Of a DNA stretch of 64,000 nucleotides, positions 1 through 8,366 are shown one piece after another; the first letter of the stretch is position 1, and each line of letters starts with the position of its first letter. Under the pieces are notes generated by a model, which was given only the letters and a program-made list of their open reading frames with translations, made no database searches and was not told the DNA's origin. Source of the stretch: a bacterium. GTDB lineage: Bacteria; Patescibacteriota; Dojkabacteria; JAKAPS01; JAJZLI01. The DNA is taken from positions 21,509 to 85,508 of the forward strand of contig JAJYFR010000003.1 of assembly GCA_021785355.1 (NCBI GenBank), read 5' to 3'. Position numbers and translations under genes: made by a program.

Positions 1-705
1 CCTACCAATCAGCCTACTTGTAAATTGTACCCTATGTTTTTCATCCAAAACATTCTGATTTTTAAGATGAGTGACAAGTTCGTTAAAGAAAGAAGAGATT
101 TCTCTATAGAATTGTTCATTTAGAGGATGTATATCAAAACTTTTCCAAAGAATTTCATGAATATTACCTTTATTTGAGTAATCAAAATCTTGAAACCAAT
201 TATTAAAAATCTCTTTTTGTGTATGATTTAGTTTTTGACTAAGCTCTAAAGTACGTATCTTATATTCTTTACTTAAAACAATTATCAATTTATCAGCTTC
301 TTCTGGAATTATAAAATCTATCCCAATAGGTCTATTCTTATTAAATTTTTCATCTTCAAAATTCTTTGTTAATGCAGTAATTTTTAAAATATTATTTTTA
401 TTGACTTTGGATACCCAAAAAAGATTGAACTCAATATTTCTATCATTATCTTGAGCTAGAACATATGTTGCTTTTCTATCTGAATATCCTGGAGCATTCA
501 GTGTCCAACTTATATTTCTTGTTTCTTTAGATAAACTAGGAAAATATAATAATGTTTTTGAAATATCAGTAATACCAAAAATAGAAACTATCTCTTTTGC
601 TATTTCAACTGCTGAATCAAAAGAATGATTTTCATTTGCAAATTTAAGTGCTTCATTTATTCTATCAAAATGTGTTGAATTTTTGTTATTTGTTTGAACT
701 GACAT
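1..705 (-). CDS. Partial CDS running off the window start, product unknown. It is the distal gene of the PLD/SNF2 operon and a possible defence partner protein.
   Basis: An ATG at 705 on the minus strand overlaps the stop of the upstream 686..4168 gene by 20 nt. The frame stays open to position 1 and translates as MSVQTNNKNSTHFDRINEALKFANENHSFDSAVEIAKEIV... No motif I can name with confidence. Confidence 0.4.
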   Translation of the reverse strand, partial: MSVQTNNKNSTHFDRINEALKFANENHSFDSAVEIAKEIVSIFGITDISKTLLYFPSLSKETRNISWTLNAPGYSDRKATYVLAQDNDRNIEFNLFWVSKVNKNNILKITALTKNFEDEKFNKNRPIGIDFIIPEEADKLIIVLSKEYKIRTLELSQKLNHTQKEIFNNWFQDFDYSNKGNIHEILWKSFDIHPLNEQFYREISSFFNELVTHLKNQNVLDEKHRVQFTSRLIGR

Positions 706-3700
706 AGTATAATATTTGTTTTACATTATTTGGTAAAATAGGTTCTTCTTTATTATCTTTAATATCTCTGGCTATAATTATAAGTTTTGTCAAATCATCA
801 TAGTACGGTTTGTTTTCTTTTTGTGATCTTGAAATCTTTCTTACTAATTTTATAATATTTCTTTTTTCATGGTAATTTTTTGTATTAAGCGCCTCATCAA
901 CTATTTCAATATCCTCAATATCATAATTTAATTCACTCATCAATCTAAGTAATTTTATATTCAAACCTTTTGCACTCTCTTCAGCTGGTGTAAAAGTATA
1001 TGCTTCTATATCACTTGCTTTATTAACAATAGACTCTTTCTTTACAGATATATTATCTTTAAATCTTTCATTATCTGTCACTTCTGTTTTCAATATATTT
1101 AATGCTTCTAAATAAGGAATCAAATGTATATTAGCACTATCTTTGTCCATCCCAATAAATTGAGGATATAAATATGTATCATCTTTCAAAAGATGACTTA
1201 ACACCATTACAGGAAAATAGTTTGTTTTATAAGAAGGTATTACTCCCCACTTTCCAAGTGGAATATCATAAATTGACTTTTTATATTCTATTGGAAAATG
1301 ATCACTCTTTTCAAATGATTTAAGATCTAATATAAAATCATCTTCTGCCATAAGTAAGTCACTCTTTTCTTCAATAGTCGTTAACGCTTGAATCCTTTTT
1401 TGCTCGTCATCACTATATAAATCTTTAATACTCTCCACAAAATCAATTGGATTTTCTACTTCACCTAAAACAGATTGATCACTTCCTATTGTATTACTTA
1501 TCATCTCAATCTTACTTTCTAATCTTTTTACTAGTTTAAGATATAGTTCAAGCTTAAATTCAGGCCTCATATTATATATATATACATTCTCATAGTTAGA
1601 TCCTATTCTATTAATTCTTCCATTTCTTTGGATCATTCTTACTGGATTCCAATGTAGGTCATAATTAATAATTATCCCAGCATCTTGTAAATTTTGTCCT
1701 TCTGATAATATGTCTGTAGAAAATAAATACCTAATTTCATCATTATTTAAAGTATAACCCTTTGCTATAGGAGAAAATCGTTTAGCTAAAATCTCCGAAT
1801 CATTCCTGTTTTTTGTTGAAACGAAAGCAGTATTACTTTCATTTAAAAGTCCATTTGATAATTTGAATATATTTTTCTCCAAATAATTTATAGTGTCAGC
1901 AAAATATGAGAATATAAGAACTTTTTCTCCAGCCAATTTTTCTTTATCAAGCTTTTTTAAAAGATCAATTAATGCATTTAACTTTGAATCCGGATTTTTA
2001 AAAAGTTTTAACTCTTTTAGAATAATATCTATAAGTTCAAATTCTTTTTTTATATCGTTAGAGAATGCTTCTAGATTATATTTAGTATTATTTACTTTAT
2101 CTAATACCATATCACTTTCTTCACCTATTATACTTGGATCATCAAGAGATTCATCTATATCTATCATCTTTAAAGCATCTTTTAAAACTTCTAAATCTTT
2201 TACTCCTACTATCTCATGATGTTTTTCTAAAGCTTCATTAAATTGTTCTAATTTTTCCTTATAGTTTCTCAAAGATTTTGATATTGCCTCAACTGATGAC
2301 TCCATTCTCTTAAGATACATTGTCCTGAAAATTCCATATATCCCTCTTTGTTGCTGTAAATCCCTACTTTCGTCTCCAGTTAATTTCAAAGCTTTGATTT
2401 CTTCAACTGTTTTACCGTAATATTTCCTTTGATATAATCTCCATCTATATGGGATAAATCCTAGCATTAAAATAAGTTGAAAAATGAAATAAATGGGAGA
2501 TTCATTTAATAAAGTTTTAATTTTAGTAGAATCTTCAGTAAGCTTATCTAGCTGATCTAATGGATGTTTTAAATCTGTACATTTATCAACAATCTCTTGA
2601 GGATCATATTGATAAAGTTTTTCTACATCAAAAGATACTTTTGCATCAAGATTAAGTATCTTATTATTTAATGATGATTCAAAATTATATTGATAATTTT
2701 CAGGTATTGCTTTAGGAAAACTTTTCTTTTCCTCATCTATAGTTAAGTGTCCATATTCTTTTTCTATACCTTGTCTAGTTCTCCTTACAACTACGCTCCT
2801 AATAATAGGAGCCATTACTTGTTTTATATTCTCATAATCAATTTCTTCTTCCTGTTTACTTTGTCTAGTAATTTTTCTTTGTAAATTCTCAATTGCTTGA
2901 ACAAAATCTACTTGTGATGTTTGACCAGATTTACTATCTCTTATAGTAATTTGTATGATATCTCCTCTTCCTCTCGTTCCTAATAGAATTTGATTAGTAA
3001 GATCCTTAAGTTCATTATTTATAGGAGTAGCTGTTAGGAGTAAAACATGTGCTTGTTTATTATTTTTTATCCAATCCAAAAGTTGTTCATATCTCTTTCC
3101 ATTAGATTTTCTCAAGTTATGAGATTCATCAATAACGAATAATGAGACTGAAGCAATATTATCTAAATTTCTTTCCTTTTGTATTGCTTCACTATTTTGT
3201 AAGGTTATTGGCGTTACATTAGTTAGTCCCTGACCAGTAAGTTCACTTTCCCATTGATCAGTTAAAGATTTTGGACATATAATTGCTACTCTTTTTCTTC
3301 CTTCTTTACTATCAATATATTGTTTAATTACTCCAATCGCAGTTATAGTTTTTCCTAATCCTACTGAATCAGAAAGCATTGCAGTTTTAAATTTATTAAG
3401 TTTGCGTATAAGTTGCTGAACATTCCTTTTTTGAAATTCCATTAATTCGTGTCTTGAATGACTAGTTTCTACTAATTCTACTTCTTCTAACTCTTCTTTA
3501 TATAACTCATACAATGTTTTTATATACATCTCATATGGACTAAATAACATATCTCCAACAGGAGAGTACTCAAGAATTTCCGTAAAATGATGATTCCATT
3601 CTTCTGACTCATTCCAAAATTCATCAAACCAATATAAATGTCCAACCTCTTGGTTATCATTTTTAGGTTCATAGGTTACTATTCTTGAATCATTTTCAAG

Positions 3701-4168
3701 TGCATTAAGCTCAGTATTCTTTGTAAGACCATTTCCTGTAAAATTAGATGATCCTATAATTCCAATCGCATTAGAAGATTCAAAATTACCAAATATATAA
3801 CACTTTGCATGTAGAAATGACTTTTTATATACCCTCACCTCAAGAACTCCTTTTGAGATAAGATCTTTTATTGAGATAATTGTTTCTTTTAATTTTTCAT
3901 TCGGAGTGAGAGCTTCCAAATCTTTGAATATATCTCTTTCTGGATAATCTGGTTCAGGATCATTTAATTGATGACGTGGAATTAAAGGTTCTCTTCCTAT
4001 TAATAAACGGATTTTTTTATAACCTTTTATTTGCTCTAAAAGCATATCAATACTTTGAAGATCCCAATAACCAGTAGCTATCGACAGTTCATCATACTCA
4101 GAAGAAATATTTTTGATTGTATCTAAAAGTAAAACTCTATTGTTATCAATAATTTTAACTATTTTCAT
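686..4168 (-). CDS. Fusion protein with an N-terminal PLD-like (phospholipase D / NucT-type) nuclease domain and a C-terminal SNF2-family helicase.
   Basis: PLD HxK..GSxN motif: LHAKCYIFGNFESSNAIGIIGSSNFTG near residue 120. SNF2/DExH helicase motifs: motif I LSDSVGLGKTITAIGV, motif II VIDESHNLR, motif III LLLTATPINN, motif VI QRNGRINRIGS. 1160 aa. Confidence 0.8.
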   Translation of the reverse strand: MKIVKIIDNNRVLLLDTIKNISSEYDELSIATGYWDLQSIDMLLEQIKGYKKIRLLIGREPLIPRHQLNDPEPDYPERDIFKDLEALTPNEKLKETIISIKDLISKGVLEVRVYKKSFLHAKCYIFGNFESSNAIGIIGSSNFTGNGLTKNTELNALENDSRIVTYEPKNDNQEVGHLYWFDEFWNESEEWNHHFTEILEYSPVGDMLFSPYEMYIKTLYELYKEELEEVELVETSHSRHELMEFQKRNVQQLIRKLNKFKTAMLSDSVGLGKTITAIGVIKQYIDSKEGRKRVAIICPKSLTDQWESELTGQGLTNVTPITLQNSEAIQKERNLDNIASVSLFVIDESHNLRKSNGKRYEQLLDWIKNNKQAHVLLLTATPINNELKDLTNQILLGTRGRGDIIQITIRDSKSGQTSQVDFVQAIENLQRKITRQSKQEEEIDYENIKQVMAPIIRSVVVRRTRQGIEKEYGHLTIDEEKKSFPKAIPENYQYNFESSLNNKILNLDAKVSFDVEKLYQYDPQEIVDKCTDLKHPLDQLDKLTEDSTKIKTLLNESPIYFIFQLILMLGFIPYRWRLYQRKYYGKTVEEIKALKLTGDESRDLQQQRGIYGIFRTMYLKRMESSVEAISKSLRNYKEKLEQFNEALEKHHEIVGVKDLEVLKDALKMIDIDESLDDPSIIGEESDMVLDKVNNTKYNLEAFSNDIKKEFELIDIILKELKLFKNPDSKLNALIDLLKKLDKEKLAGEKVLIFSYFADTINYLEKNIFKLSNGLLNESNTAFVSTKNRNDSEILAKRFSPIAKGYTLNNDEIRYLFSTDILSEGQNLQDAGIIINYDLHWNPVRMIQRNGRINRIGSNYENVYIYNMRPEFKLELYLKLVKRLESKIEMISNTIGSDQSVLGEVENPIDFVESIKDLYSDDEQKRIQALTTIEEKSDLLMAEDDFILDLKSFEKSDHFPIEYKKSIYDIPLGKWGVIPSYKTNYFPVMVLSHLLKDDTYLYPQFIGMDKDSANIHLIPYLEALNILKTEVTDNERFKDNISVKKESIVNKASDIEAYTFTPAEESAKGLNIKLLRLMSELNYDIEDIEIVDEALNTKNYHEKRNIIKLVRKISRSQKENKPYYDDLTKLIIIARDIKDNKEEPILPNNVKQILYYVSSNK

Positions 4169-4172
4169 ATTC

Positions 4173-4391
4173 TTATTTATTATTAACTCCTTTTAATAAA
4201 CTGTCAATTGGTATTTTTAAAGCTCCTGATATTTTTAATAATTTTTCAATACTTGGGTTTTTAATAACTCCATTCTCAAGTTTGGTAATAGTTGTAAATG
4301 GAACAGTAGAACTTTTAGCCAAATCTTCTTGAGTTAAACTTTGTTCTAATCGTATTTTTTTAATATTTTTTCCTATAATACTTAAATCCAT
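4173..4391 (-). CDS. XRE-family (Cro/cI-type) helix-turn-helix transcriptional regulator.
   Basis: 72 aa; HTH region LTQEDLAKSSTVPFTTITKLENG. Sits immediately upstream of the PLD/SNF2 gene on the same strand with a 4-nt gap. Confidence 0.75.
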   Translation of the reverse strand: MDLSIIGKNIKKIRLEQSLTQEDLAKSSTVPFTTITKLENGVIKNPSIEKLLKISGALKIPIDSLLKGVNNK

Positions 4392-4394
4392 ATA

Positions 4395-4429
4395 TTGATA
4401 TCAATCAAGTGTTTATATGATGTTAACAT
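4395..4429. promoter_or_regulatory. Two perfect 10-bp palindromes in the divergent intergenic region, candidate operator sites for the XRE regulator.
   Basis: TTGATATCAA at 4395-4404 and ATGTTAACAT at 4420-4429. Both are perfect palindromes between divergently oriented genes (4391 minus, 4474 plus). Confidence 0.3.
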
Positions 4430-4473
4430 ATTATTAGTTTTGAATAAAGATATATAGTATAATTAACTTAATC

Positions 4474-5052
4474 ATGTGGATAATCATTATAGCCTTTTTA
4501 GCATTAATAGTGTCCTATATAACATTTATTTATACTAGAAAATCATACGAAATATCTGTTTTGCCTTGTATAAAAATATCTTTTTTGAAGCAAGACAGTT
4601 CAGTCTTATGTTATGTAAAGAATATAGGGAGTGGCGTCGCTTTTGATATTGAAATACAAGAACAAATGATGAGATTTGAAAAGGAAAATGTATCTTTTCA
4701 TTTAGAATTAATATTGAAAGATAACAACATGCTTGATATAGGACAAAAATCACTTTTAGATGTTAAAGCGTATGAAATTATTAATGATAAGAAGCAAGTT
4801 AGTCTTCAAGATTTTGTATCAGGAATATTAAAAGAATCTGATTCAAAATTTTTAGTAACATTTAAAAATATTGGAGGAAAAAGATATTATTCAATAATAA
4901 ATTATAAAATAAAAGATGATCATGATTATATAAATATTTCTCCTCCAAAAAAGCTTAGTATTTTCAATGCAATTTTGGATAGTAGAGATAAAACAGATCT
5001 AATAAATATTTATATTGCTTATAAGAAAAGAATTTTTTTATTATCCAAATAA
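4474..5052 (+). CDS. Hypothetical membrane-anchored protein.
   Basis: 192 aa; N-terminal transmembrane helix MWIIIIAFLALIVSYITFIY followed by a soluble domain. No recognisable motif. Confidence 0.4.
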   Translation: MWIIIIAFLALIVSYITFIYTRKSYEISVLPCIKISFLKQDSSVLCYVKNIGSGVAFDIEIQEQMMRFEKENVSFHLELILKDNNMLDIGQKSLLDVKAYEIINDKKQVSLQDFVSGILKESDSKFLVTFKNIGGKRYYSIINYKIKDDHDYINISPPKKLSIFNAILDSRDKTDLINIYIAYKKRIFLLSK

Positions 5053-5100
5053 TAAAAACACTAAACTGTAACTTAACTAATAAATTTATTGAACTAAAAC

Positions 5101-5412
5101 ATGGACTTAAAAACATTTATAAAAAAATCTATTGTTGATATAACAAGTGGAGTAGTAGCATCAAACAATACACCCAATAGTTCTTACATGGTAAGATTAC
5201 AAGATTCTAGTGAAGGATATAATATAGAATTTGATATTGCAGTCATAGTAAAAGAAACTGACAATAACTCCAAAGATAAAAATATAGGAGCACAAATTAG
5301 TGTCTTATCTATGGGGTTGAAAGCTGGAATAAAAAGTGATAAAGATCATAGTAATGAAAATAGCACTGTAACAAGAATTAAATTCAAAGTGGAAGCGATA
5401 AAGACAAGATGA
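5101..5412 (+). CDS. Hypothetical protein.
   Basis: 103-aa ORF. Its stop overlaps the start of the next ORF (ATGA overlap at 5409-5412), suggesting translational coupling. Confidence 0.35.
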   Translation: MDLKTFIKKSIVDITSGVVASNNTPNSSYMVRLQDSSEGYNIEFDIAVIVKETDNNSKDKNIGAQISVLSMGLKAGIKSDKDHSNENSTVTRIKFKVEAIKTR

Positions 5413-6119
5413 GAATGAAGATTCAAAAATATGCAGACTTTGGGACTTCTTCACCATGGTTTGCAAGAATAAATGATATAAACTATATATTAGAACCGAT
5501 TTTTTTATTTAGAACACGACCATCATCTGATGATATAAAAAATGCAGAGATAAAAAAAGAGAAACTGAATAATATAAAATTTGAAGTCATAAAAGAACTA
5601 GGCAAAGCATATTTGAGTTTAGATACATTAAAAAATAAATCGAAAAATTTACCCCAACTCAATATTGAAAATGAATACAATAATATTTATGAATCTTTAT
5701 GGAGGGCATATAAGGATAGATCTTTGTTATTTATAAAAAATCTAGATTACGATATAGGATTCATGTTTAAAAATGATAAAGATTTCAGAAAGGATGGTTT
5801 AATTTTCATAAAAAATAATAATGTAGATGATAAATTCCTAGATCTTATTGAGGAAAAAAGGATTACCTGGCAGAACGAATTATCTGATTTCAGGAATAAT
5901 TTTTTAGATCACTTAAAAACAGATAAATCTCTTCAATACCAACATTTTTACACAATAAAAAACGTAGAGTTAGTCTTTGATCATGTATGGAAGTCCATAG
6001 AAGATATATGGATAATCCTTATTAAAAGTTATTATCCTTTAAATTTTGATTTAAGGGAAATACCTAAAGATAAAAGAGACAAAAATAACCCTATAAAATT
6101 TGAAATTATCAATATTTAA
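5409..6119 (+). CDS. Hypothetical protein.
   Basis: 236-aa ORF coupled to the preceding ORF; no recognisable motif. Confidence 0.4.
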   Translation: MRMKIQKYADFGTSSPWFARINDINYILEPIFLFRTRPSSDDIKNAEIKKEKLNNIKFEVIKELGKAYLSLDTLKNKSKNLPQLNIENEYNNIYESLWRAYKDRSLLFIKNLDYDIGFMFKNDKDFRKDGLIFIKNNNVDDKFLDLIEEKRITWQNELSDFRNNFLDHLKTDKSLQYQHFYTIKNVELVFDHVWKSIEDIWIILIKSYYPLNFDLREIPKDKRDKNNPIKFEIINI

Positions 6120-6246
6120 CAAATACTTGTTAATAATACAAATTAAGCATCAATTTTCTAATTAAGCATACTCTAATTTATCCCTTTACAAAGCTATTTT
6201 GCACCTACTATTTCAAACTATTGACATTACTTTCATATAGTTATAT

Positions 6247-6266
6247 ATTATCCTTATAGGGATAAT
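6247..6266. promoter_or_regulatory. Inverted repeat (7-bp arms, 6-nt spacer) downstream of a sigma70-like promoter, ahead of the recombinase operon.
   Basis: ATTATCC-ttatag-GGATAAT at 6247-6266. TTGACA at 6221-6226, 17-nt spacer, TATATT at 6244-6249. Confidence 0.3.
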
Positions 6267-6291: not shown

Positions 6292-6465
6292 ATGGCAAGA
6301 TTAAAGGGCAGTAAAAACAAAAAATCAAGTTCAAACGATCGTCCTATCACATCAAATTTATCAACAGAGGAAAGAATCAGATTTCTAGCAAATATCATAG
6401 TATATAGAATCATAGAGGACCAGAATACAGATAGCATTTTATTTAAGAACTTAAATTTAAAATAG
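6292..6465 (+). CDS. Small basic ORF (57 aa) translationally coupled to the serine recombinase gene. Possible recombination directionality factor or excisionase-like accessory protein.
   Basis: ATG at 6292, stop TAG at 6463-6465, recombinase ATG at 6468. Translates as MARLKGSKNKKSSSNDRPITSNLSTEERIRFLANIIVYRIIEDQNTDSILFKNLNLK. AAGGTA ribosome-binding site upstream. Below the 60-aa cutoff of the supplied ORF track. Confidence 0.3.
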   Translation: MARLKGSKNKKSSSNDRPITSNLSTEERIRFLANIIVYRIIEDQNTDSILFKNLNLK

Positions 6466-6467
6466 AT

Positions 6468-8207
6468 ATGGACAATATAAGAATGGAAAACGCTGTAGCT
6501 GCAATTAGAGTATCATCTGTAAAACAAGGAACTGACGGAGATTCTCCTGAAGCTCAAAGAGAACAAATAGAAAGATTTGCTGAAACTCATAATATCAATA
6601 TAAGGAAGATATTTGTTTTTCTAGAATCTGGATCTAAAGAAAAACAACCAGTACAAGAAGCAATTGATTATTGTAAGAATCCTAAGAATAATATTCAACT
6701 TTTTATCATTAAATCCATAGACAGATTCACTAGAGGTGGATCATATTTTTATGATGGTCTTAAAATGCAATTAGACCAAAAAGGAGTAAAACTTATTGAT
6801 ATTTATGGTGTTATAGGAACTCATGATGTAAATACTCTAGAACATCTTGGAGTATCATATAACTGGAGTGTCTACTCCCCTACTAAAAAAGCAGAGATGC
6901 TTGAGGCAGAAAGAGCAAAAGATGAGATGAGAGATATCATGTCAAGAATGATTGGAGCTCAAATAAGGTATATAAGGATGGGATATTGGGTACACAGAGC
7001 CCCATTCGGATATATGAATGAAAAGGTTGAAACATCTAATGGTAAAAGAGTTCTGTTAAAACCAGAACCAACAGAATCTGTATGGATAATTAAAATGTTT
7101 GAGTTAAGAGCAAGAGGCACATTAGATGACCATCAAATTGTAGATACCATAAATTCCATGGGATTCAAAACAAGAATTGAACTTAAAAGAAATCCGAAAA
7201 ACAGAACTCAGATTATAGGACAAAAAGGAGGAAACAAACTTACGTTGAAAGCATTATGGAGATTTATAGAAAATCCTATCTATGCAGGTATACATGTAGG
7301 AAGTTGGAATAAAGGTTTCCCTATAAAAGGCAGATATGCGGGATTAGTTTCATTTGATATCTTTAATAAAGCAAATAAAGGAAAAATCACAATAAGAGAA
7401 GATAATGGTGAGATAAAAGTATACAAAAGAGAACCAAAAGATTATCTAGTTCAAAAAGGAGTCAAAAACTCTGAATTTCCATATAAAAAATATGTTTTGT
7501 GTCCTCATTGTATGAAACCACTGTATGGGAGTGCATCTCGTGGCAAACTAGGTAAATATTATCCTGCTTATCATTGTAATAAGAGAGGTCACTATTTTAG
7601 AGTTCCCAAAAAAGATTTTGATGCTACAATATCAAAGTTTATAAAAAACATAAATCTATCACAAGAATATATTGACGCACTTCAAAAAGTAGTATTAGAG
7701 GAATGGGATAAAAGAAGTAATGAGATCAACAAGGATAAAGTAAACATTGATCAAAGAATCAGTGAACTTAAAATGCAATCAAAGGCAACTGTAGATAAGA
7801 TCAAATACCTTCAATCTGAAGTTGCTATAAAATATCTAGAGGCTGATTTAATAGAGAACGAGAATGAAATTGAAAAGTTAATGGTCAAAAAGGAAAAAGA
7901 GACAAAAGAACCAGTAAATATGGTCAAGGTTATGGAGTACATAAAATACTTTCTGGAACACCTTGATAATTTACTGCTACAAAGCGATAATCCTATAGAT
8001 AGAGCTACCTATTTTAGTGCTATTTTCAACCATGCTCCAACCTATCAAGAATTGATTTCTGGAACACCAGATTTAGCTGATTGTATCAGTCTAAACAAGG
8101 TCTTTATACAGGGTCGTGGACAGCTATCTGGGATGCAGGGACTCGAACCCCAAACTTCAGGACCAAAACCTGGCGTGATGCCATTTCACCACATCCCAAT
8201 ATATTGA
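6468..8207 (+). CDS. Large serine recombinase (resolvase/invertase N-terminal catalytic domain, recombinase domain, zinc ribbon, coiled coil).
   Basis: Catalytic motif AAIRVSSVKQ (nucleophile Ser). Zinc-ribbon cysteines CPHCMKPLYG...YHCNKRGH. Coiled-coil region. The last ~30 codons read through antisense tRNA-Gln sequence, so the true C-terminus and attachment site lie at the gene/tRNA junction. Confidence 0.85.
   Translation: MDNIRMENAVAAIRVSSVKQGTDGDSPEAQREQIERFAETHNINIRKIFVFLESGSKEKQPVQEAIDYCKNPKNNIQLFIIKSIDRFTRGGSYFYDGLKMQLDQKGVKLIDIYGVIGTHDVNTLEHLGVSYNWSVYSPTKKAEMLEAERAKDEMRDIMSRMIGAQIRYIRMGYWVHRAPFGYMNEKVETSNGKRVLLKPEPTESVWIIKMFELRARGTLDDHQIVDTINSMGFKTRIELKRNPKNRTQIIGQKGGNKLTLKALWRFIENPIYAGIHVGSWNKGFPIKGRYAGLVSFDIFNKANKGKITIREDNGEIKVYKREPKDYLVQKGVKNSEFPYKKYVLCPHCMKPLYGSASRGKLGKYYPAYHCNKRGHYFRVPKKDFDATISKFIKNINLSQEYIDALQKVVLEEWDKRSNEINKDKVNIDQRISELKMQSKATVDKIKYLQSEVAIKYLEADLIENENEIEKLMVKKEKETKEPVNMVKVMEYIKYFLEHLDNLLLQSDNPIDRATYFSAIFNHAPTYQELISGTPDLADCISLNKVFIQGRGQLSGMQGLEPQTSGPKPGVMPFHHIPIY
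8118..8188 (-). tRNA. tRNA-Gln (anticodon TTG), no encoded CCA.
   Basis: Reverse complement TGGGATGTGGTGAAATGGCATCACGCCAGGTTTTGGTCCTGAAGTTTGGGGTTCGAGTCCCTGCATCCCAG. U1:A72 pair and G73 discriminator typical of bacterial tRNA-Gln. Anticodon loop TTTTGGT. Confidence 0.7.
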
Positions 8208-8293: not shown

Positions 8294-8366
8294 TGCCACA
8301 AGTGGGGGTCGAACCCACGACACAAGGCTCTTCAGGCCTCTGCTCTACCAACTGAGCTACCGTGGC
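8294..8366 (-). tRNA. tRNA-Phe (anticodon GAA).
   Basis: Reverse complement GCCACGGTAGCTCAGTTGGTAGAGCAGAGGCCTGAAGAGCCTTGTGTCGTGGGTTCGACCCCCACTTGTGGCA. Anticodon loop CTGAAGA. Confidence 0.8.

Follow-up and report, generated by a model that had tools for sequence, protein, structure and literature searches.

HEPN RNases act independently of metal, through the R and H of a conserved motif whose arginine is directly followed by a polar residue (N, D or H). The HEPN proteins of the abortive-infection (Abi) type that are embedded in restriction-modification (R-M) operons, such as Abi2/AbiD/AbiF and EC042_2821/DUF3644 (HEC-08), are single-domain helical proteins of ~200-350 amino acids (aa) with an R-[NDH]-x3-5-H motif. 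They have been found on mobile elements as well as within or next to R-M operons (PMC3710099; for HEC-08, bioRxiv 10.1101/2024.01.29.577857), and the sequence hallmark of HEPN RNases is Rx4-6H with the Arg followed by a polar residue (PMC3710099). Here we compare with these systems a cassette of three open reading frames (ORF1, ORF2 and ORF3) that lies between an XRE-family regulator and a large serine recombinase in a stretch of 64,000 nucleotides (nt) from contig JAJYFR010000003.1 (assembly GCA_021785355.1), which we refer to as the window. The third gene, ORF3, encodes what appears to be a HEPN-like protein of an undescribed family.

Two other kinds of described system bear on the comparison. 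The anticodon nucleases PrrC and RloC sit between hsd genes and cut RNA when the R-M system is neutralised, and the same logic is proposed here for ORF3; in both, the nuclease is fused to an ABC ATPase domain, whereas the ORF3 family has no NTPase domain. In the type II/VII toxin-antitoxin (TA) systems of the HEPN-MNT (HepT/MntA) kind, a small partner gene overlaps the gene with the RNxxxH-type HEPN motif, and the same is seen in the cassette. HepT has ~130 aa and a nucleotidyltransferase as its partner, whereas ORF3 has ~240 aa and no nucleotidyltransferase domain is present in ORF1 or ORF2. The same-orientation position between hsdM and hsdS is that of PrrC, RloC, Abi2 and other back-up effectors (PMC3710099), and most of the genes found embedded in type I R-M operons have a role in defence, an argument known as ‘guilt by embedding’ (Payne et al. 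2024). By analogy, ORF3 and its relatives look like an undescribed family of a familiar effector type, similar in function to the R-M-associated HEPN abortive-infection proteins and in logic to PrrC/RloC.

ORF3, its relatives and their motif

No significant match to ORF1, ORF2 or ORF3 was obtained from Pfam, PADLOC, PHROGs or NCBIfam, and a word-indexed search of 5.8 billion clusters returned only self matches for all three. For ORF3 this orphan result was a false negative, as shown by an exhaustive HMMER search of 1.84 billion cluster representatives that recovered 121 relatives, 67 of them at E ≤1e-10 and the best at 40% identity (E 3e-34). The relatives are typically 225-260 aa in length. 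One of the 121 matches, P0076, is a eukaryotic IQ-repeat artefact. A distant member of the family, P0108 (307 aa), has an N-terminal SEC-C zinc-binding motif (Pfam 4e-6).

We aligned 50 of the sequences and found R162 and F190 to be invariant; the positions conserved at ≥90% include R151, W154, N163, H168 and W194. The full family alignment comprised all 120 matches, with denominators that vary by position. In this alignment R162 is present in 106/106 sequences, R151 in 103/104 and N163 in 98/106 (with D in 3/106), position 167 is E or Q in 89/101, and H168 is present in 97/102, with three members having the His shifted by one residue. The family consensus reads WQNxLxxFRNxxxEH, with an Rx5H spacing that is Rx4H in a few members, and the R-N-x4-H within it is the best conserved polar feature of the family. 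ORF3 of the window retains every conserved motif residue, its local sequence at residues 162-168 being RNNFLDH, so that an earlier sequence-only reading, which recognised no motif in the cassette, does not hold for this gene.

The ORF3 family thus displays both parts of the HEPN signature, a conserved Rx4-6H and an N or D directly after the Arg, and on the sequence evidence ORF3 is a member of an undescribed family of ~240-aa proteins bearing the HEPN RNase signature. We call it HEPN-like rather than HEPN, because it passes on the motif but fails to match a HEPN profile, and because its HEPN fold and RNase activity are predictions. The family resembles the HEPN Abi proteins in its motif and in its embedding between hsdM and hsdS, and a DUF3644 gene lies in the same island; it differs from them by three additional conserved blocks (ADFGTxEPFVARI, LWxAYKDR and GxDIGFLF) not known there.

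The surroundings of ORF3 homologs were sampled in nine distinct contexts, a small and non-random sample. In two of the nine, the homolog is embedded in a type I R-M operon in the same orientation as its neighbors, embedding being defined as a position between R-M, BREX, DISARM or Hma genes. In the first operon (L103, homolog P0005), the order is HsdM, a 178-aa membrane-anchored protein, the homolog, a 183-aa protein and HsdS (Methylase_S 2e-42), with a TrwB-like ATPase alongside. In the second (L108, homolog P0008), the homolog lies between N6_Mtase/HsdM (3e-92) and Methylase_S/HsdS (5e-24), with overlapping genes and no small partner. The homolog of a third context (L111-113) follows an XRE gene after a gap of 5 nt, and Replic_Relax, an IS1595 transposase and an 867-aa protein are encoded alongside. 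One homolog adjoins a gene with an NYN nuclease domain (L117), another is solitary and two genes away from an AAA_15/SMC_N ATPase (L097-102), and another is solitary among PadR, DUF1048, HAD and SDR genes (L114-116); the contigs of L105, L109 and L110 are too short for judging the context. The family was not found in the viral contigs of IMG/VR or in plasmid records, a tblastn search of plasmids and phages was negative, and a search of the genome contigs for ORF3 found nothing. For ORF3, neither of the refuting observations named in the sequence-only reading was made: its homologs did not turn out to be conserved housekeeping genes, and conservation was not lacking.

We read ORF3 as a probable defence gene because of the HEPN-like motif, the hsdM/hsdS embedding and the XRE-led homolog on an element with Replic_Relax and type IV coupling protein (T4CP) genes. 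In general terms, ORF3 is probably a small defence or addiction gene carried by an integrative element. The more specific reading, that ORF3 encodes a HEPN-type RNase effector of the abortive-infection or addiction type with two lineage-specific partners, is put forward tentatively, as one we hold at slightly under an even chance. The suggestion of the sequence-only reading, that a compact module of this kind hides a defence or abortive-infection function, therefore survives for ORF3 only, through its motif, the R-M embedding of its homologs and the XRE-led copy, and not for ORF1 and ORF2.

A number of results weigh against this specific reading. None of 115 members of the ORF3 family matched a Pfam family, whether HEPN or other, PADLOC gave only 3 isolated weak matches for 50 members, and sequence and profile searches of the PDB yielded no match, the best E of 0.42 belonging to an unrelated chain. 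The hhalign comparison of the family with a three-sequence DUF3644 alignment returned a probability of 0.1%, and in profile terms the family matched neither Abi_2 nor DUF3644 nor any other Pfam HEPN family. A HEPN fold would be an all-alpha, four-helix up-down bundle in which the motif stands where the last core helix starts. The single-sequence AlphaFold2 (AF2) model of ORF3 is all-helical, which speaks for the reading, but at a predicted local distance difference test (pLDDT) score of 39 it is of low confidence, and the fold is a prediction. The window copy of ORF3 is adjacent and divergent to the R-M-like operon and not embedded in it, and five of the nine contexts (L097, L105, L109, L110 and L114) are uninformative or resemble those of ordinary accessory genes. 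The copies of the island are ~100% identical across all contigs that carry it and differ by a single nucleotide polymorphism (ORF1 D123Y), and a selection signal is not obtainable from them for that reason. Finally, ORF1 and ORF2 are linked to ORF3 only by adjacency and by an overlap of a type that is common in this genome.

The lack of any profile or structure link to HEPN also favors the alternative that survives best, one we nevertheless consider unlikely: the family would not be a nuclease, and R, N and H would serve, for example, in nucleic-acid or partner binding as an R-M accessory or regulator or in a mobile-element function, with the cassette as unrelated cargo. We estimate from residue counts that an Rx4-6H arises by chance in about 1 in 3 single sequences, and several homologs lie amid PadR, DUF1048, HAD hydrolase, glyoxalase and glycosyltransferase genes. 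However, the motif is no coincidence of one sequence: R is invariant, and N and H are conserved at >90%, over ~100 sequences at 25-40% identity. The placement between hsdM and hsdS was also found twice.

The three genes of the cassette

The three genes lie on the + strand between the regulator and the recombinase, as the sequence-only reading had described (Table 1). With 26% GC the window is AT-rich, and its genes are densely packed. Translation table 11 fits, given the long intact ORFs and the use of TGA as the stop codon in 8/49 ORFs of ≥150 aa; an alternative code in which UGA is read as Gly was rejected. Given that a codon is a stop with a probability of 0.083, chance would produce an open frame of 192 codons with P ~6e-8 and one of 236 codons with P ~1e-9, and shuffled windows contained no frame of ≥190 codons. 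They did contain ~1.7 frames of ≥100 codons per window, and the length of ORF2 alone is not decisive for that reason. A codon model specific to the reading frame, for which 45 other window genes served as the training set, prefers the annotated frame for ORF1, ORF2 and ORF3 by margins of 0.141, 0.150 and 0.151 per codon, compared to a host median of 0.152, and the antisense ORFs of the cassette scored negative. On these grounds we regard ORF1, ORF2 and ORF3 as genuine genes.

Residues 1-21 of ORF1 are strongly hydrophobic (Kyte-Doolittle 19-residue mean of 2.67) and are followed by RK, in agreement with the membrane anchor proposed earlier; by the positive-inside rule, ORF1 is predicted to be anchored with its N-terminus outside and the bulk of the protein in the cytoplasm. 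The ATGA at 5409-5412 common to the ORF2 stop and the ORF3 start, which the sequence-only reading took as translational coupling, is present. It carries little weight, however, as 13/36 same-strand neighbor gene pairs of the window overlap, 4 of the 13 by 4 nt.

No relatives of ORF1 or ORF2 were found in Pfam, PADLOC, PHROGs, NCBIfam, the word-indexed collection, the PDB, the viral contigs or by tblastn of plasmids and phages. The best PADLOC score of ORF1 was to ZorB at 0.006 (14 bits), which is not significant, and ORF2 and ORF3 had no PADLOC match at all. The fast method used for ORF1 and ORF2 fails to detect relatives at ≤40% identity, and we treat the two as orphans only provisionally. 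The 178-aa membrane-anchored protein of L103 resembles ORF1 in architecture only, and homology of the two was rejected (z = 1.4, and -0.3 without the membrane segment). A likeness of ORF2 to Trypco2-like small adaptors, judged by eye, was likewise dropped when Pfam at E ≤1 gave only FANCA_arcN at 0.12; the single-sequence AF2 model of ORF2 (pLDDT 40) was unusable. We did not recover homologs of ORF1 or ORF2 at any of the 21 loci around ORF3 homologs, nor at 80 loci with a related recombinase (see below). The proposal that the three genes form one module gains no support from this result, and on the loci compared the cassette is not a conserved three-gene system.

Another possibility is that ORF2-ORF3 or XRE-ORF3 works mainly as a toxin-antitoxin module for addiction, by which the island is kept in the chromosome, with ORF3 as the toxin and ORF2 or XRE as its labile antidote or repressor, and with no anti-phage role. 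The two-gene XRE-ORF3 homolog operon of L111-113 has the classic antitoxin-toxin layout, the stop of ORF2 overlaps the start of ORF3, and the island is recombinase-borne without the T4CP and Replic_Relax genes found in most relatives. ORF2, on the other hand, has no antitoxin-like domain and no homolog beside other family members, ORF2 and ORF3 are both basic (pI 8.9 and 8.7), and the homolog of L108 stands alone in its R-M operon without a small partner. We regard an addiction module in this sense as rather improbable, and its difference from abortive-infection defence is partly semantic.

It is quite improbable that ORF1 and/or ORF2 are non-functional, i.e. decaying or spurious frames between ORF3 and the XRE operon. 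No homologs of either gene were found in the collections searched, a frame of 103 codons arises by chance ~1.7 times per shuffled window, and decay does occur in the island, where the DUF3644 gene is split into two ORFs. The codon scores of ORF1 and ORF2 nevertheless equal the host median, with negative scores for the antisense ORFs, and a 192-codon frame has a chance probability of only ~6e-8. The ORFs also tile the gap without overlap with other genes, and the search behind the orphan calls was the one that missed 121 relatives of ORF3.

Table 1. Positions of the cassette and of neighboring features in the window
Feature	Position	Strand	Description
MmeI/Eco57I-type N6-adenine methyltransferase, 5' part	1-705	-	1101 aa; extends past left window edge; L006 13464-16769
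PLD (HKD) nuclease-SNF2 helicase fusion	686-4168	-	1160 aa; Pfam PLDc_2, SNF2-rel_dom, Helicase_C
XRE-family helix-turn-helix (HTH) protein	4173-4391	-	72 aa; HTH_3 3e-15 (Pfam); PADLOC HTH_VI 3e-13, R-M Control_protein 3e-9
Divergent spacer	4392-4473	.	82 nt; two palindromes; TATAAT at 4458-4463, 10 nt before ORF1 ATG
ORF1	4474-5052	+	192 aa; predicted N-terminal membrane anchor at residues 1-21 and soluble part of ~170 aa
ORF2	5101-5412	+	103 aa; soluble; stop overlaps ORF3 start
ORF3	5409-6119	+	236 aa; R-N-x4-H (HEPN-like) motif at residues 162-168; candidate RNase effector/toxin
Sigma-70-like site	6221-6249	+	TTGACA-17-TATATT, 11/12 consensus match; upstream of small ORF and recombinase
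Small basic ORF	6292-6465	+	57 aa; conserved directly upstream of this recombinase family
Large serine recombinase	6483-8207	+	574 aa as called; Resolvase 1e-9; Recombinase and Zn_ribbon_recom weak
tRNA-Gln	8127-8199	-	antisense to recombinase 3' end

Recombinase, helicase-methylase operon and the rest of the island

The cassette is followed by a recombinase with recombinase domains and tRNA adjacency, both characteristic of integrative elements. A metagenome scan gave >250 relatives of the recombinase at 57-67% identity, from which we retained 80 loci (L017-L096). At 70 of these, an antisense tRNA gene reaches into the recombinase gene at its 3' end, with 13-199 nt shared, and the tRNAs vary among loci (Gln, Ser, Glu, Lys, Arg, Asp, Ile, Asn/Tyr and others). 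It would appear from this that the recombinase coding sequence contains the attachment site, in which case the C-terminus of the protein would change upon integration or excision. The usual next genes in the related elements encode a T4CP of ~870 aa (DUF87, TrwB_AAD_bind, TraG-D_C) and a Replic_Relax protein, suggesting a family of tRNA-targeting integrative elements in small genomes that are probably mobilisable or conjugative. Unlike most relatives, the window island has no T4CP or Replic_Relax gene within 17.5 kb. Over the 9.3 kb to the left of the window, which stop short of the far end of the island, the tRNA-Gln region has no att repeat.

Compared to known serine-recombinase integrative or mobilisable elements, the same Resolvase, Recombinase and Zn-ribbon domains are found next to a tRNA, and the relatives carry the T4CP and Replic_Relax genes. 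The differences are that the recombinase frame here enters the tRNA gene antisense and that a conserved ORF of ~55 aa precedes the recombinase. The sequence-only reading correctly placed the cassette between regulator and recombinase but overlooked this fourth small ORF, which goes with the recombinase. Its 57-aa product has 70 homologs at E ≤1e-3 among the 80 loci, always just upstream of the recombinase, and no match in Pfam or PHROGs; it may be a directionality factor or a regulator of the element family, and it lies outside the cassette. By consensus match, the strong promoter-like site upstream of it may mark a transcription unit separate from the cassette.

No relatives of ORF1, ORF2 or ORF3 are encoded in the 80 recombinase loci (phmmer with filters off). 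The three genes were also ruled out as diverged core genes of the element, as hhalign gave ≤5% against 16 conserved gene families from these loci. We conclude from their absence at the related loci and from the lack of similarity to the core families that ORF1-3 are variable cargo of a tRNA-associated serine-recombinase island, beside an R-M-like operon (XRE, PLD-SNF2 helicase, MmeI-like methylase, DUF3644/HEPN). That this cargo is of the conflict type is, in our view, fairly probable.

A contig from the European Nucleotide Archive (ENA; L002/L007, ERZ27237515 k141_1210408) is identical to the island over ≥17.7 kb up to a junction at window position 8359, inside a tRNA-Phe; beyond it lies sequence of 43% GC with a tRNA-Ala, a DNA ligase and an M48 peptidase. 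We rejected this join as proof of transfer and read it as most likely an assembly chimera at a conserved tRNA, because the host contig from this sample is also interrupted in that tRNA array; a real transfer to another host is less probable. A second strain from the same sample (L012 11873-12268, ENA ERZ27237515 k141_966208, corresponding to about window 8382-8071) shares the host flank without differences as far as the 3' end of tRNA-Val, followed by an 81-nt insert and then by tRNA-Phe, tRNA-Gly, tRNA-Gln and the recombinase 3' end at 91% identity, which points to a diverged variant of the island in this position.

On the other side of the cassette, the XRE gene, the helicase gene and the methylase gene are tightly spaced. 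The XRE stop is 4 nt from the helicase start, and the methylase gene, the last of the operon within the window, overlaps the helicase gene by 20 nt. The helicase matches PADLOC C3a139 ‘HKD+Snf2’ (5e-51) and is also DrmD- and HmaA-like, the match to DISARM DrmD (3e-47) being below cut-off; by these profile matches it is a defence-type helicase-nuclease. A search of the genome contigs for the helicase gave one distant match only, which was uninformative. The methyltransferase matches Eco57I (3e-37), N6_Mtase (1e-14), TaqI_C (3e-14) and MmeI_Mtase (1e-9) in Pfam. A locus of the same recombinase family (L049 2-5379) encodes homologs of both the helicase (1e-46) and the methylase (6e-81), preceded, in place of XRE, by a gene for a 73-aa HTH protein judged by eye to be of the MerR/excisionase type. 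The trio of small HTH, helicase and methylase looks like a mobile three-gene unit.

The 4-nt gap, the matches to R-M control proteins and the same layout in L049 led us to assign the XRE gene in the first place to the helicase-methylase operon, as its first gene and probable controller. The XRE protein may also act on the shared spacer and the divergent cassette. As the sequence-only reading noted, the cassette diverges from XRE across a spacer with two perfect palindromes, ATTGATATCAAT at 4394-4405 and ATGTTAACAT at 4420-4429. The layout and the palindromes are present, but the palindromes are statistically not unusual, since perfect palindromes of ≥10 nt occur at 2.4 per kb across the window and dinucleotide shuffles of the 82-nt spacer contain at least one in 37% and at least two in 7.5% of cases. 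For this reason the palindromes are weak evidence, and they are at most putative operators. A small regulator heading the operon, palindromes just upstream and the PADLOC Control_protein match are reminiscent of C-protein and RptR-type regulators. RptR is the repressor of a type I R-M island in which a toxin-antitoxin system is embedded (PMC12255303), whereas the XRE protein here shows a generic HTH_3 only and, as far as tested, is not of the RptR family.

Beyond the left edge of the window, the island continues with a DUF3644 gene, a further HTH gene and several genes without an assigned function. DUF3644 is classed as HEPN and is typical of R-M operons (PMC3710099); it corresponds to HEC-08, for which experiments support a role in defence and show that the motif His is required (bioRxiv 10.1101/2024.01.29.577857). 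The DUF3644 sequence of the island (Pfam 9e-24) carries LRNKIEH, the same local pattern as the ORF3 motif. The gene is broken up into a 109-aa and a 269-aa ORF that overlap (L006 16796-17125 and 17086-17895, ~2.6-3.7 kb to the left of position 1) and is probably a frameshifted or decaying copy. A 137-aa protein (L006 22889-23302, ~8.7-9.1 kb to the left of the window) has another Rx5H motif, IDYRNKTIIH, and its alignment with the ORF3 family profile is confined to the motif. The island may thus carry three HEPN-like genes, to judge by these motifs. A 203-aa protein with a SEC-C motif (L006 22150-22761) is also encoded in the island and is unrelated to ORF3. An 84-nt direct repeat (93% identical) at L006 19720-19803 and 21163-21246 flanks a 413-aa gene without an assigned function. 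Several Logan contigs end at this internal repeat because of it, and we rejected the ends of the 13.9-kb Logan contigs, which break at the repeat and in a tRNA, as boundaries of the island.

The position of the cassette next to the recombinase, where leading-region or anti-restriction genes often occupy the end of an element and where related elements carry a DUF2958-like gene (judged by eye only) at an analogous place, could point to an anti-defence or anti-restriction module that shields the element on entering a new host, but this is very unlikely, as the ORF3 homologs lie in host R-M operons in the same orientation, which fits a defence partner over an inhibitor, and the family is absent from viral contigs and plasmid records.

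Proposed role of ORF3

On the reading of ORF3 as a HEPN-type RNase effector, this gene would be the functional core of the cassette, with R162 and H168 as the catalytic dyad of the Rx4-6H motif. The protein would be kept inactive during normal growth, like AbiD/AbiF, PrrC/RloC and HEC-08. If the neighboring restriction system were disabled, or a phage or foreign element entered the cell, ORF3 would cut RNA (tRNA, rRNA or mRNA), translation would stop and the infection would be aborted; alternatively, cells that lose the island would be killed. ORF3 could then provide back-up for the restriction-like system next to it, addict the cell to the island, or do both. The overlap of its stop with the ORF3 start would make ORF2 most likely a stoichiometric inhibitor, adaptor or partner of ORF3. 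ORF1, with its bulk predicted to be cytoplasmic, might be a membrane sensor or localiser, and XRE may act on the shared spacer as the repressor of both divergent promoters.

In its most far-reaching form, the proposal would make ORF1-ORF2-ORF3 a new membrane-linked abortive-infection system of ultra-small bacteria, probably of the candidate phyla radiation (CPR)/Patescibacteria, as the 26% GC and the gene content suggest, in which ORF1 is the sensor, ORF2 the inhibitor and ORF3 the founding member of a HEPN-like RNase family that also backs up type I R-M operons. We offer this version as a long shot.

The searches also carry a warning on method: orphan calls made by fast searches are unreliable at ≤40% identity, in AT-rich and fast-evolving lineages. 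The candidate is cheap to test, as it requires one gene of ~240 aa and two point mutants. If the RNase reading is correct, ORF3 would define an unannotated family outside Pfam and PADLOC, with ~120 clusters at 50% identity, and would represent a candidate RNase effector that backs up R-M systems, including those of reduced-genome bacteria, whose immune repertoire is poorly known.

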